Virus record (IMG/VR): IMGVR_UViG_2548876863_000020
Coordinates: 1-10,296 of that record
Origin: a virus
Lineage: Duplodnaviria > Heunggongvirae > Uroviricota > Caudoviricetes
Length of the DNA: 10,296 nucleotides
Reading direction: 5' to 3' (one strand)
Shown here: piece by piece, positions 7,324 to 10,296 of the stretch
Layout of the letters: every line of letters starts with the position of its first letter
Position numbering within the stretch: position 1 is the first letter of the stretch
Position numbers and translations under genes: made by a program
The notes under the pieces: model-generated
Databases searched by the model: none
What the model was told of the DNA's origin: nothing
The model's input: the letters and a program-made list of their open reading frames with translations, nothing else

Positions 7324-7623
7324 TCAAATAAGTGGTTTGCTGCCTAATTTCATTTTCTGGCAACCAACACAAGTCACACCCATTTCACTGCGTGGCTTGC
7401 GGTAGTAAATACGGTTCTGTTTACGCTCGACTTCTTCTTTCTTCTTGCAGCAAAGGCTTCCTAGCGATGCTGCTTTGTCTGCTCTGACGCAACCAGAGAG
7501 CTTTAGCGCAATTTTTCGCGCCAGTCGCTGCTCTTGCATCGCCTGTTCACGTTGAGCCTGTCTGCGTGCTCTGCGGCGATTTCTGGCGTTATCGTCAGCC
7601 AGATATGTAATGACTACTGTCAT
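7324..7623 (-). CDS. N: Antitermination protein N (99 aa)
   Basis: ATG 7623..7621 with GGAGG 5 nt upstream (track ORF extends further with a non-ATG start). Arginine-rich motif NARNRRRARRQAQREQ near the N-terminus; C-terminus ERKQNRIYYRKPRSEMGVTCVGCQKMKLGSKPLI parallels lambda N (ERKNQRTWYSKPGERGITCSGRQKIKGKSIPLI, recalled). Confidence 0.85.
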   Translation of the reverse strand: MTVVITYLADDNARNRRRARRQAQREQAMQEQRLARKIALKLSGCVRADKAASLGSLCCKKKEEVERKQNRIYYRKPRSEMGVTCVGCQKMKLGSKPLI

Positions 7624-7678
7624 GTTGACCTCCGATGAAACAACTTTGGAATTGATAGTGATTGCAAAGTGGTTTCTG

Positions 7679-7707
7679 GCCCCTCGAACTGAGGGGCAGA
7701 AAGAGCA
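7679..7707 (-). promoter_or_regulatory. GC-rich hairpin with boxA-like flank in the N leader (function uncertain)
   Basis: Minus-strand RNA UGCUCUUUCU then GCCCCUC-AGUUC-GAGGGGC (7-bp perfect stem), about 55 nt upstream of the N start; no U tract after it, so not a classical terminator. Confidence 0.35.
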
Positions 7708-7936
7708 TCTCGCCACCTAATAGGTCGATGCTCGGATCGAGAGATTTAATTAACCTCGGTTTTGAAGTTATGCATTCACATAAATCCTCCTACCTCTTGT
7801 GCAGCTTTCTTGAATATGGTGGCGGCTGCATAACGCCTATGGAATTGACTTTGGCGGTGACGCGCCGGGTGCTTATCTTCCGGTTGCCGTCGTGCAGCTG
7901 CACTTCACGTCACCCCAAAGCCAACTACTCTTTGGT

Positions 7937-7978
7937 TCCCGCATTTCGGCGGGACAATCCCATCAATGTTAAAGAGCA
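7937..7978 (-). promoter_or_regulatory. nutL (boxA + boxB)
   Basis: Minus-strand RNA UGCUCUUUAAC (boxA-like; consensus CGCUCUUUA) followed after 14 nt by hairpin UCCCGC-CGAAAU-GCGGGA. The same boxA plus identical boxB occurs in the same transcript orientation downstream of cro. Confidence 0.7.
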
Positions 7979-8023
7979 TGCCAATCTGTTCCGTTTGGCT
8001 ACCAGCGTCCTGCTGATGGCTAA

Positions 8024-8052
8024 AGAATACTGTAGGTATTTTATTGTGTAAA
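8024..8052 (-). promoter_or_regulatory. pL candidate (-35 TTTACA, 17-nt spacer, -10 TATTCT on minus strand)
   Basis: Read on the minus strand: TTTACA (plus 8047-8052), spacer of 17, TATTCT (plus 8024-8029). Same -10 hexamer as the pR candidate; overlaps OL1, about 40 nt upstream of nutL. Confidence 0.45.
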
Positions 8053-8110
8053 TACCCAAGGTATTTATTTTTGGTGAAATAATGATAAGCAAATGAATAC
8101 AAAGGATATT
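8026..8110. promoter_or_regulatory. OL operator cluster (three 15-bp palindromic sites)
   Basis: AATAC-TGTAG-GTATT (8026-8040), AATAC-CCAAG-GTATT (8051-8065), AATAC-AAAGG-ATATT (8096-8110). Same AATAC-N5-GTATT motif as in the cI-cro intergenic region. Confidence 0.6.
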
Positions 8111-8197
8111 TATTTTTTTCGGTGTCTGCTTGTTCAGTGCTTTTTATGCGGGATATGTGAAGTGGATCCCGATAGCTATTGCTGCCGGGATTATGAG

Positions 8198-8566
8198 TTA
8201 GTCAGCGAAGGTTAAGACGAGAATTACCTTAATGATGTCTGCTACAACAGACACGGCCATAGATAAACCAAAGACGATCCAAGCCATAGAGATGTCTTCA
8301 CTACCATCGTATAGAGTTCCGTAATCACTGGTGTAAGGCGTAAATGTCGCGCCTTGATACAACAGGTATAAGCTTGAACCATAGAGGATAAATGCAGATA
8401 TCCCTTGTATTGCTATGATCACTAGAATCATGAAACGAGCTGATCTATGCGCCCAAGCCTGGCTTATTTTTTCTGATAGAGATTTCGCAATAAAAGCATG
8501 CGCTAAGCCGTAAATTGTCGAGATTGCCAACATCCCAAAAAAGCTTGCTATAGCGGTTCCAACCAT
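8198..8566 (-). CDS. Small integral membrane protein (about 122 aa, three predicted TM helices) co-transcribed downstream of cI
   Basis: ORF-track frame 8198..8587 (TTG overlapping the cI stop); ATG 8566..8564 with AAGGGG upstream is the more likely start. Three hydrophobic stretches of roughly 25 residues each. No terminator between it and cI. Confidence 0.65.
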   Translation of the reverse strand: MVGTAIASFFGMLAISTIYGLAHAFIAKSLSEKISQAWAHRSARFMILVIIAIQGISAFILYGSSLYLLYQGATFTPYTSDYGTLYDGSEDISMAWIVFGLSMAVSVVADIIKVILVLTFAD

Positions 8567-8583
8567 AAGCGCCCCTTGCGTGA

Positions 8584-9300
8584 TCAAACCAGCCTTAGTT
8601 TTGTCTCAATTGCAACGCCTATAATCTTGCAGTTTCCATTGATTGGCACGAGAGGCCATGCAGGGTTAAGTCCCTTGAGGTATTTATTTCCGCCGTCGAT
8701 TATCAGCTTCTTGAATGTTGCTTCGTTAGAGTCAGAAAGTTTTGCTATGACCAAGCTGCCGTTGATCGCCTCCCTTCCGGTATCGAAAAGAACGAATGTT
8801 CCCTCTGGAATGCTTAACCCAACCGGTGCCGTCATTGAATCACCTTCCACTTTAAGCCAGAACGCATTACCTTGAATATGCGCGTCAGACTCAAGCCAAA
8901 CATCTATGTCTTTAATGGTGTATGGTTCGCATGCTTCACACCACGAGCCAGCCTGGATACTGCTTAACACCGGATACCTCTTTCCTGCTCTGTATTCCCC
9001 TGCATACCTTACGTTGGCATCGCTCTTAAGGCTTTCTGCCTGTTCTGCAACCTTGGCAGCAATTGACTGGCTAAAATCAGCAATTGAGACTTGCAACAGT
9101 CGTGCAAAACCAGATGCAACCTCAACGTTTAGCGCGTTTCTGCCATTAAGATAATGCCCTACCGCTCCTTGGGTGATACCCAGTTCATCAGCGATTGAGT
9201 ATTGGGTTATTCCCAATTCTTTCTTTTTTGACTCATACAAAGCCTTAAGCCGCTTAGCGTCTTCGAGCTGTTCTGTCGTCAGTGATTTTTTATTTTCCAT
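8584..9300 (-). CDS. cI: CI-type prophage repressor (238 aa), HTH plus S24 autopeptidase domain
   Basis: Strong resemblance to lambda CI as recalled (LTTEQLEDAKRLKALYESKKKELG...). Ala-Gly cleavage site in IQAGSW, catalytic Ser in EGDSMTAP, Lys in TFKKLI. Divergent from cro with operators between them. Confidence 0.95.
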   Translation of the reverse strand: MENKKSLTTEQLEDAKRLKALYESKKKELGITQYSIADELGITQGAVGHYLNGRNALNVEVASGFARLLQVSIADFSQSIAAKVAEQAESLKSDANVRYAGEYRAGKRYPVLSSIQAGSWCEACEPYTIKDIDVWLESDAHIQGNAFWLKVEGDSMTAPVGLSIPEGTFVLFDTGREAINGSLVIAKLSDSNEATFKKLIIDGGNKYLKGLNPAWPLVPINGNCKIIGVAIETKLRLV

Positions 9301-9306
9301 AGCTTA

Positions 9307-9335
9307 ATTCTAATAGCTAAGGTACTTAAACTAAA
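9307..9335 (-). promoter_or_regulatory. pRM candidate, leaderless or near-leaderless cI transcript
   Basis: On the minus strand, TAGAAT (plus 9307-9312) ends 6 nt before the cI ATG and there is no Shine-Dalgarno, as for lambda pRM; the -35 is weak (TTTAGT). Confidence 0.35.
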
Positions 9336-9375
9336 AATACCCTAAGTATTGATTGCTTTGAATACCTGTAGTATT
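9312..9375. promoter_or_regulatory. OR operator cluster (OR3, OR2, OR1)
   Basis: AATAG-CTAAG-GTACT (9312-9326), AATAC-CCTAA-GTATT (9336-9350), AATAC-CTGTA-GTATT (9361-9375); centre-to-centre spacing 24-25 bp. Confidence 0.65.
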
Positions 9376-9377
9376 CT
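9349..9377 (+). promoter_or_regulatory. pR candidate (-35 TTGATT, 17-nt spacer, -10 TATTCT)
   Basis: -35 at 9349-9354 overlaps OR2; -10 at 9372-9377 overlaps OR1; about 30 nt upstream of the cro start. Confidence 0.5.
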
Positions 9378-9406
9378 TTGTTCATGGTTAATAACGGAGA
9401 GTGCAT

Positions 9407-9601
9407 ATGATTCGAATGACACTTGCCGATTACGCCAAAATCCATGGACAGGCTAAAGCAGCCAGTGACTTTGGTGTAATCCAGTGCGCTATCAGCAAGG
9501 CCATTCTGGCAGGCCGTAACATTATGGTTACGGTAAAGCCTGATGGCAGTGTGATTGGAGAGGAAGTTCGTCCTTTCCCAAGCAACAAGAAAAACAAATA
9601 G
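9407..9601 (+). CDS. cro: Cro repressor (64 aa)
   Basis: ATG 9407 with GGAGA 6 nt upstream (track ORF begins at GTG 9401). Resembles lambda Cro as recalled (ITLKDYA..FGQTK.A.DLGV.QSAINKAI.AGR...DGSV..EEV.PFPSNKK). Confidence 0.9.
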
Positions 9602-9607
9602 TAACAC

Positions 9608-9652
9608 CGCTCTTTAACAGTCATGGTCCTCATTCCCGCCGAAATGCGGGAA
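9608..9652 (+). promoter_or_regulatory. nutR (boxA + boxB)
   Basis: CGCTCTTTA at 9608-9616 (boxA consensus), then hairpin TTCCCGC-CGAAAT-GCGGGAA at 9633-9652, identical to the nutL boxB, immediately after the cro stop. Confidence 0.75.
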
Positions 9653-9658
9653 TACAAC

Positions 9659-9690
9659 GCGCACAAGTTGATGCGCATAACTTCTTATTA
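9659..9690 (+). terminator. tR1 candidate
   Basis: Hairpin GCGCA-caagttga-TGCGC followed by a moderately U-rich AUAACUUCUUAUU, between nutR and cII. Weak as an intrinsic terminator; could be Rho-dependent as in lambda. Confidence 0.3.
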
Positions 9691-9709
9691 GTTAAGGAAA
9701 TACTTACAT

Positions 9710-9988
9710 ATGCAACTTACAAGTACTCGCAAGAAAGCGAATGCAATTACAAGCAACATCCTGAATCGAATTGCTGTACGTGGTCAGCGAAAGGTTGCCG
9801 ACGCGTTAGGGATTAATGAATCGCAAATTTCGCGATGGAAAGACAGCTTCATCCCAAAAATGGGAATGCTTCTGGCTGTTCTTGAATGGGGTGTTGAAGA
9901 CGAGGAGTTGGCGGAACTGGCTAAGAAAGTAGCCAGAATGCTGACAAAAGAAAAAGCCCCGAAGAACGGCGAATTCTTCGAGGCCTGA
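9710..9988 (+). CDS. cII: CII transcriptional activator (92 aa)
   Basis: ATG 9710 with AAGGAAA upstream. Resembles lambda CII as recalled (KSQISRWK....[14 protein letters not shown]...A.LA..VA..LT). Confidence 0.9.
9944..9980 (-). terminator. oop-like antisense terminator inside the cII 3' end
   Basis: Minus-strand RNA CGAAGAA-UUCGCCG-UUCUUCG (7-bp stem) followed by GGGCUUUUUCUUUUG; position matches the lambda oop RNA terminator. Confidence 0.35.
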
Positions 9989-10022
9989 TGTAGAAAGACT
10001 GGATCAATCCACAGGAGTAATT

Positions 10023-10169
10023 ATGACAAAACAACTCAGTCCTTACCAGGACAAAATTCACAAACACATACTACGTGATCGCTTCCTGTCCAGCTTCAAG
10101 CAGCCTGGTCGATTCCGGGCTGAGTTGGAAAAAGTGAAGCTGATGCAGAAGGAGAAAGGTCATGAGTAA
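10023..10169 (+). CDS. Small hypothetical protein (48 aa), below the ORF-track cutoff
   Basis: ATG 10023 with AGGAG 6 nt upstream; translates [48 protein letters not shown]; stop 10167-10169. Confidence 0.4.
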
Positions 10170-10296
10170 TCTTGCAACCGTAACACATTTAAGGCCTTCA
10201 CAACGGCCTGTGGAGCGTCGTGTGGCAGAAGTTGAAGATGGTTATACTGAACCGCCCCGGGAATCCTGGAGACTAAACTCCCTGAGAAAGAGGTAA
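10162..10296 (+). CDS. Small ORF (44 aa) with an N-terminus reminiscent of replication protein O; ends at the window edge
   Basis: ATG 10162 with AGGAG upstream, overlapping the previous stop by 8 nt. [10 protein letters not shown]...[11 protein letters not shown] parallels lambda O MTNTAKILNF...RNVADLDDGYA (recalled); stop TAA at 10294-10296. Every forward frame has a stop in the last 60 nt. Confidence 0.4.

Follow-up and report, generated by a model that had tools for sequence, protein, structure and literature searches.

The closest described relative of the locus studied here is the immunity region of phage HK620, which Clark, Inwood, Cloutier and Dhillon reportedly presented in 2001 (J Mol Biol 311:657). 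The feature lines of the HK620 record, AF335538, list OL1, OL2, OL3, tIMM, OR3, OR2, OR1, pL and pR, and further annotate nutL, nutR, pRE and a cII site. Repressor, Cro, operators and promoters of this type have thus been on record since that year, but binding, footprinting, transcription start site or cross-immunity data for the HK620 or mEpX2 repressor were not found in the searchable literature. The second reference system is phage lambda. Transcription from lambda pRM begins at the A of the cI ATG, and the operator contacts seen in the structures of lambda repressor are Gln44 to base pair 2, Ser45 to base pair 4, and Asn55 together with Lys4 to base pair 6. Upstream of lambda pL, Giladi et al. 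are said to have located an IHF site and a distant UP element in 1998. For Cro, a published 'evolutionary code' (PMC6649833) assigns A+2 to Gln at helix position H1, A+5 to Ala H3 and C+6 to Lys H6. Nineteen immunity groups have been distinguished among 46 mEp phages (PMC11893012), and one more non-lambda specificity among wild lambdoid coliphages is to be expected.

We have analyzed a stretch of viral DNA of 10,296 nucleotides, referred to in its full length as the window. Positions 7900-9700 of the window (1.8 kb) are 98.7-99.1% identical to HK620, mEpX2, HK630, HK140, HF4s, vB_EcoP_phi296, vB_EcoP_phi367 and two Stx2c phages. Many E. coli prophages and Stx phages carry the module, and at least 80% of this segment is found in 146 of 5,426 complete E. 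coli genomes. The encoded repressor matches that of HK620 in 237 of 238 residues, and Cro in 64 of 64. The operators are likewise the same except for one central base of OR2, where the window has an A at position 9344 and both HK620 and mEpX2 have a G; this is a non-consensus position, and the difference appears consistent with the arms being the constrained part of the site. With cI, Cro and operators essentially identical as judged from their sequences, the immunity region is of the imm-HK620 type and the window can be labelled as such. An earlier note on this DNA had pointed to a repressor-operator set distinct from lambda, and had itself named a match with a known immunity type as the outcome that would make the set non-novel but the reading not wrong. 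This is the outcome obtained: the set equals the one annotated in HK620 in 2001, and the note was right but not novel. The family-wide footprint and a likely misannotation of OL3, both described below, are the mildly new points that remain. Outside the immunity region the resemblance to HK620 ends, in that the backbone left of about position 7900 is mosaic and different from that of HK620. The best overall match of the window, HK140, covers only 63% of it.

Table. Features of the immunity region, in window coordinates, with the HK620 operators as aligned onto the window. Scores are from a weight matrix trained on OR sites only; mismatches are counted against AATAC-N5-GTATT.
Feature	Position	Strand	Description
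OL1	17-mer 8025..8041, core 8026-8040	-	AATACTGTAGGTATT; 0 mismatches; 18.2 bits
OL2	17-mer 8050..8066, core 8051-8065	-	AATACCCAAGGTATT; 0 mismatches; 20.0 bits
Distal third OL site	17-mer 8095..8111, core 8096-8110	-	AATACAAAGGATATT; 1 mismatch; 10.5 bits
OR3	17-mer 9311..9327, core 9312-9326	+	AATAGCTAAGGTACT; 2 mismatches; 13.9 bits
OR2	17-mer 9335..9351, core 9336-9350	+	AATACCCTAAGTATT; 0 mismatches; 19.0 bits
OR1	17-mer 9360..9376, core 9361-9375	+	AATACCTGTAGTATT; 0 mismatches; 17.2 bits
pL	8024..8052	-	TTTACA-17-TATTCT; promoter scan match; within the pL annotated in HK620
pR	9349..9377	+	-35 TTGATT (9349-9354), 17-bp spacer, -10 TATTCT (9372-9377); read from the sequence
Candidate pRM	9307..9335	-	-10 TAGAAT (plus-strand ATTCTA, 9307-9312); weak -35 TTTAGT (9330-9335)
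hkaS homologue	8198..8566	-	122 aa; HK620 annotation; PHROG 6534, listed as unknown function
cI repressor	8584..9300	-	238 aa; lambda-type N-terminal HTH and S24 autopeptidase domain
cro	9407..9601	+	64 aa; lambda-fold Cro, recognition helix QCAISK
HK620 OL1, OL2, OL3	8025-8041, 8050-8066, 8072-8088		17-mers of the HK620 record
HK620 OR3, OR2, OR1	9311-9327, 9335-9351, 9360-9376		17-mers of the HK620 record

A motif search of the 10,296-nt window for AATAC-N5-GTATT retrieved six palindromes, three of them in the cI-cro intergenic region and the other three upstream of N, and in combination with a direct reading of positions 7900-10296 it located all six sites exactly where the earlier note had placed them. 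The consensus of these six is nAATACC-N3-GGTATTn, and the 15-bp palindromes are the cores of 17-bp operators collinear with those of lambda. As seen from the alignment of the HK620 17-mers, five of the 15-mers are cores of operators that are annotated in that phage. The spacings from OR3 to OR2 and from OR2 to OR1 are 24 and 25 bp. OR3, the weakest of the OR sites, shares 2 bp with the -10 element of the candidate pRM; OR2 overlaps the -35 of pR and abuts the candidate pRM -35, and OR1 overlaps the -10 of pR. On the other side of cI, OL1 overlaps the -10 and OL2 the -35 of pL.

The two genes that flank OR are divergent, with cI on the minus and cro on the plus strand and a gap of 106 bp between them, and the gene downstream of cro is a Phage_CII member according to Pfam. 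The repressor contains the Pfam domains HTH_3 (E 8e-10) and Peptidase_S24 (E 5e-24). Its nearest solved structure is the intact lambda repressor (3BDN, E 2.9e-52), with a match spanning the entire length, and the alignment shows the same Ala-Gly cleavage site (A117-G118), Ser155 and Lys197 in this protein and in lambda CI. Cro matches PF09048 with an E value of 3.6e-26 and 91 bits, at a cut-off of 32.7, and its nearest structure in the PDB is lambda Cro (E 4.7e-19). Over their full length the two repressors are 43% identical, and the two Cro proteins 61%. The helix region TQGAVGHYLN that the earlier note had quoted for cI is present as ITQGAVGHYLN in the translated reading frame, and the lambda counterpart GQSGVGALFN given there proved correct in the alignment with lambda CI.

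We further studied how far these elements are retained in more distant relatives. A sensitive DNA search returned two diverged phages, Hafnia phage Pocitis76 (73% DNA identity) and Erwinia phage vB_EhrS_49 (70%), and both retain three plus three AATAC-N5-GTATT sites in intergenic DNA that has otherwise drifted. A genome scan with the CI N-terminal domain as query, limited to one genome per species, yielded 33 loci from about 20 genera of Enterobacterales, among them Serratia, Yersinia, Pectobacterium, Pantoea, Tatumella, Lelliottia, Siccibacter, Lonsdalea, Proteus, Photorhabdus, Providencia, Morganella, Kluyvera and Phytobacter. The CI N-terminal domains of these relatives are 59-74% identical, the CI helix reads GHY[LIM]NGR in all and [ST]QGAVGHYLNGRN in nearly all of them, and wherever cro is identifiable the Cro helix is Q[CTMI]AISKA. 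In nearly all relatives the motif occupies three fixed slots, which lie at about +12, +36 and +60 relative to the cI ATG and are 23-24 and 24-25 bp apart, while the spacers and the centres of the sites vary. In 28 of 29 canonical relatives the OR1 slot is occupied with at most one mismatch. OR3, on the other hand, is imperfect in every locus examined, as one would predict if it is the weak site in a switch of the lambda type. Most relatives carry two or three copies of the motif in OL. Across 166 half-sites, A2 is found in 162, A3 in 155, T4 in 162, A5 in 165 and C6 in 122; position 1 shows a weak T and position 7 either C or T, and no information is held by positions 8-9. Pocitis76, vB_EhrS_49 and about 30 prophages thus have the operator consensus, the OR spacing, the CI helix and, where cro is present, the Cro helix in common with the window. 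Their OL2-OL3 distances differ and form three classes (21, 29-30 and 45-47 bp). The operator model of a 17-bp dyad with half-site tAATAC(C/T), repeated 24-25 bp apart, is now backed by a broad phylogenetic footprint. A subgroup of six loci with degenerate OR2/OR3 of the form CTAC...GTAG (L018, L019, L024, L028, L029, L033) was inspected for covariation of helix and operator, but is uninformative in this respect because its CI helix is nearly unchanged.

The claim that pR and pL share the -10 hexamer TATTCT stands, since pL is a match of the promoter scan and pR coincides with the pR annotated in HK620. Note that pR, with 8 of 12 consensus matches, falls slightly under the threshold of the scan. 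The cI ATG begins 7 nt after the -10 of the candidate pRM, so that the cI transcript would be leaderless, and a Shine-Dalgarno sequence ahead of this ATG is absent. The lambda plus strand reads cat-ACGTTA-AATCTA-TCACC..., that is, the cI ATG, 6 nt and the pRM -10 (TAGATT on the cI strand), and the window has cat-AGCTTA-ATTCTA-ATAGC..., with the cI ATG, 6 nt and TAGAAT; in both, the pRM -10 overlaps OR3 by 2 bp. Among 27 relatives the pRM -10 is kept as TAnAAT with about 2 bits at key positions, and the hexamers flanking the operators are likewise retained in the relatives, pRM as TAnAAT, the -35 of pR as TTGA and its -10 as TATTnT. The leaderless cI message that the earlier note had suggested is a prediction supported by this positional homology with lambda pRM, a start geometry identical to that of lambda, and by the missing Shine-Dalgarno sequence.

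Based on sequence, homology, positional collinearity and conservation, we consider it very likely that this region is an imm-HK620 lambdoid immunity region that operates as a lambda-style bistable switch. CI dimers and Cro dimers would both recognize the 17-bp dyads with half-site tAATAC(C/T), and binding of CI is predicted to be cooperative. CI at OR1/OR2 and at OL1/OL2 would block access to pR and pL, given that their -35 elements overlap OR2 and OL2 and their TATTCT -10 elements overlap OR1 and OL1. At OR2, CI would adjoin the weak -35 of pRM, a promoter whose transcript is predicted to have the A of the cI start codon as its first nucleotide and hence to be leaderless. OR3, the weakest site and located over the pRM -10, may serve Cro or the shut-off of pRM at high levels of CI.

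In comparison with lambda, gene order and, as far as sequence can tell, protein folds are the same. Both systems have 17-bp, odd-centred operators in a three-plus-three arrangement, with OR3 at an equal offset from the cI ATG and small displacements of OR2 (1 bp) and OR1 (2 bp). Of the six informative half-site positions (2-7), four (A2, A5, C6 and C7) are common to tAATAC(C/T) and TATCACC of lambda, and base pairs 3-4 differ, being AT here but TC in lambda. The proteins differ from their lambda counterparts in CI residues 45, 46 and 49-51 and in Cro positions H2 and H5. The CI exchanges matching base pairs 3-4 are S45G, G46A and A49H, and those in Cro are S to C at H2 and N to S at H5 (QCAISK versus QSAINK). 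Gln33, Gln44, Asn52, Asn55 and the Lys-Lys arm of CI are retained, and the common bases A2, A5, C6 and C7 appear to match the retained Gln44, Asn55 and Lys4/Lys5 arm of CI, as well as Gln H1, Ala H3 and Lys H6 of Cro. Given the contacts in the lambda complexes, the retained and changed CI residues would fit the retained and changed bases. QCAISK and nAATACC satisfy all three of these Cro-code pairings (PMC6649833). The earlier statement that lambda operators are different 17-mers holds in so far as the sequences differ at half-site positions 3-4, but it understates the kinship, as the lambda geometry and four of six positions are kept; the set is a close derivative of the lambda design and not an unrelated one. 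Instead of the lambda consensus TATCACCGCCGGTGATA and helix QSGVGALFN, the window has the half-site tAATACC and the helix QGAVGHYLN. Protein families, operator layout, half-site positions 3-4 and recognition helices together support a lambdoid repressor-operator set of non-lambda specificity, and on this basis heteroimmunity with lambda is expected. The footprint shows that a change of two base pairs in the half-site and a few helix substitutions separate this specificity from that of lambda.

As both the motif and the intergenic regions are A/T-rich, the palindromes could in principle be chance products of A/T-rich promoter sequence, or be bound by a regulator other than CI or Cro. At up to one mismatch, however, the window contains five matches, every one of them inside the two control regions, where 0.32 are expected, and none of 200 dinucleotide-preserving shuffles reached five. 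When a palindromic weight matrix trained only on OR sites (those of the window and of its relatives) was applied to the 10.3-kb window, the six sites came out as its top six 17-mers, with 20.0 to 10.5 bits. Positions, the spacing of 24-25 bp and the dyad arms are kept in about 30 diverged loci in which centres and spacers vary, the layout is collinear with the experimentally defined OR and OL of lambda, and the motif occurs together with conserved CI and Cro recognition helices. We regard an origin by chance or a foreign regulator as extremely improbable. The weakest site, at 8095-8111, needs separate consideration: at its score 0.5 matches are expected per shuffle, so that taken alone it is not significant window-wide, and the support for it consists of its location and of comparative data.

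This distal OL site lies 45 bp centre-to-centre from OL2, as opposed to 20 bp for OL3 in lambda, and it differs from the OL3 of the HK620 record at 8072-8088 (TGGTGAAATAATGATAA). It is conceivable, though in our judgment unlikely, that the palindrome at 8096-8110 is no operator but belongs to a different conserved, A/T-rich element that precedes pL, such as an IHF site or a distant UP-element region, or to tIMM, in which case there would be two OL operators only, or OL3 at the position given for HK620. An A/T-rich element does exist there: (atGAAT)TTATTTTTT(g), found at window positions 8104-8118 some 80-95 bp from OL1, is also present in lambda (locus L005, 268-288) and in nearly all relatives of any OL3 spacing class, and may correspond to the IHF or distant UP region upstream of lambda pL. 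Lambda has atGAATTTATTTTTTGcagg at the same distance from OL1 in spite of its different operators, and relatives of the 21-bp spacing class have both a proximal OL3 and, at about 80-95 bp from OL1, gGAATTTATTTTTTg. The flanks ATGAAT and ATTTATTTTT are therefore conserved independently of repressor specificity, and since they are homologous to the element that lambda carries, part of the conservation at 8096-8110 may belong to another function. The low score of the palindrome and the placement of tIMM over it in the HK620 record point in the same direction, and an IHF site together with a distant UP element is reportedly found upstream of lambda pL. On the other hand, a scan of the annotated tIMM region (about 8085-8115) detected no canonical intrinsic terminator on either strand, and the HK620 OL3 scores -22.7 bits, with no 17-mer starting at 8060-8090 scoring higher than -10.6. 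Six diverged loci carry a site at the identical offset of +70 from OL1 (L006, L009, L012, L013, L034, L036). In the seven sequences, the window included, the site has the signature of an operator, with conservation of 0.86 and 0.91 in the arms and of 0.51 in the variable 5-bp centre, and an exact AATAC left arm in four of the seven loci. The 30-bp spacer between OL2 and this site, within which the HK620 OL3 is located, has a conservation of 0.66-0.67, and we rejected the HK620 OL3 as the true third site for its score and its spacer-level conservation (0.67). Note also that the roles of operator and A/T-rich element can coexist.

We thus consider the palindrome at 8096-8110 the probable OL3 of this immunity region, a reading that draws on comparison of sequences. 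The OL3 of the HK620 database entry is unsupported and probably misplaced, and if CI binds 8096-8110, that annotation is wrong. Other relatives have their third site 21 bp or 29-30 bp from OL2, and in four Morganella loci the OL pair is 45-47 bp apart; the 45-bp architecture therefore recurs in several genera beside the 21-bp and 29-30-bp variants. About even chances may be given to a more specific proposal, namely that OL3 was displaced to 45 bp from OL2, from about 20, and built into the A/T-rich element that lambda also carries. If this is true, the OL3 required for long-range looping between OL and OR and for shutting off pRM could accommodate, or even make use of, widely differing spacings, and repression would possibly be coupled to a site for a host factor (IHF/UP). 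The IHF core WATCAANNNNTTR was sought by eye in the 30-bp OL2-OL3 spacer and dismissed, as partial matches only were seen and these were not conserved. In the Kluyvera and Phytobacter relatives (L034, L036) a fourth, weaker copy of the motif with 2 mismatches starts 15 bp before the +70 site and abuts it; in some members of the family the number of OL sites may exceed three.

With respect to transcription termination, tIMM was discarded as an intrinsic terminator for want of a hairpin followed by a U-run; the A/T stem that the operator itself could form is weak. The sole stable hairpin on the cI strand is found downstream of hkaS at about 8166-8191 (AUCCCGGCAGCAAUAGCUAUCGGGAU), and it has no U-run. 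The hkaS homologue is placed for co-transcription after cI and stands in the position of lambda rexAB, but has no match in Pfam. It is a candidate for a prophage-expressed exclusion or membrane protein.

Four Morganella morganii prophages (L027, L031, L032, L035) keep cI, OR1, OR2 and pR and have a degenerate OR3. No cro open reading frame was seen in these four loci, and their last operator is followed, at a distance of about 45-50 bp, by a boxA-like CGCTCTTTAACAG; they may represent a Cro-less or rearranged variant of the switch. In the window, nutL and nutR (7937-7978 and 9608-9653) have identical boxB stems, tcccgccgaaatgcggga, and their boxA is CGCTCTTTAACA, with the first C missing at nutL. 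The N gene at 7324-7716 (PHROG 271) is part of a segment that is not HK620-like, which places a mosaic junction between N and nutL/OL. The pL leader of Hafnia phage Pocitis76 contains an annotated tRNA-Gly (locus L003, 1242-1321), which lies between nutL and N, directly upstream of the latter; this is an unusual place for a phage tRNA.
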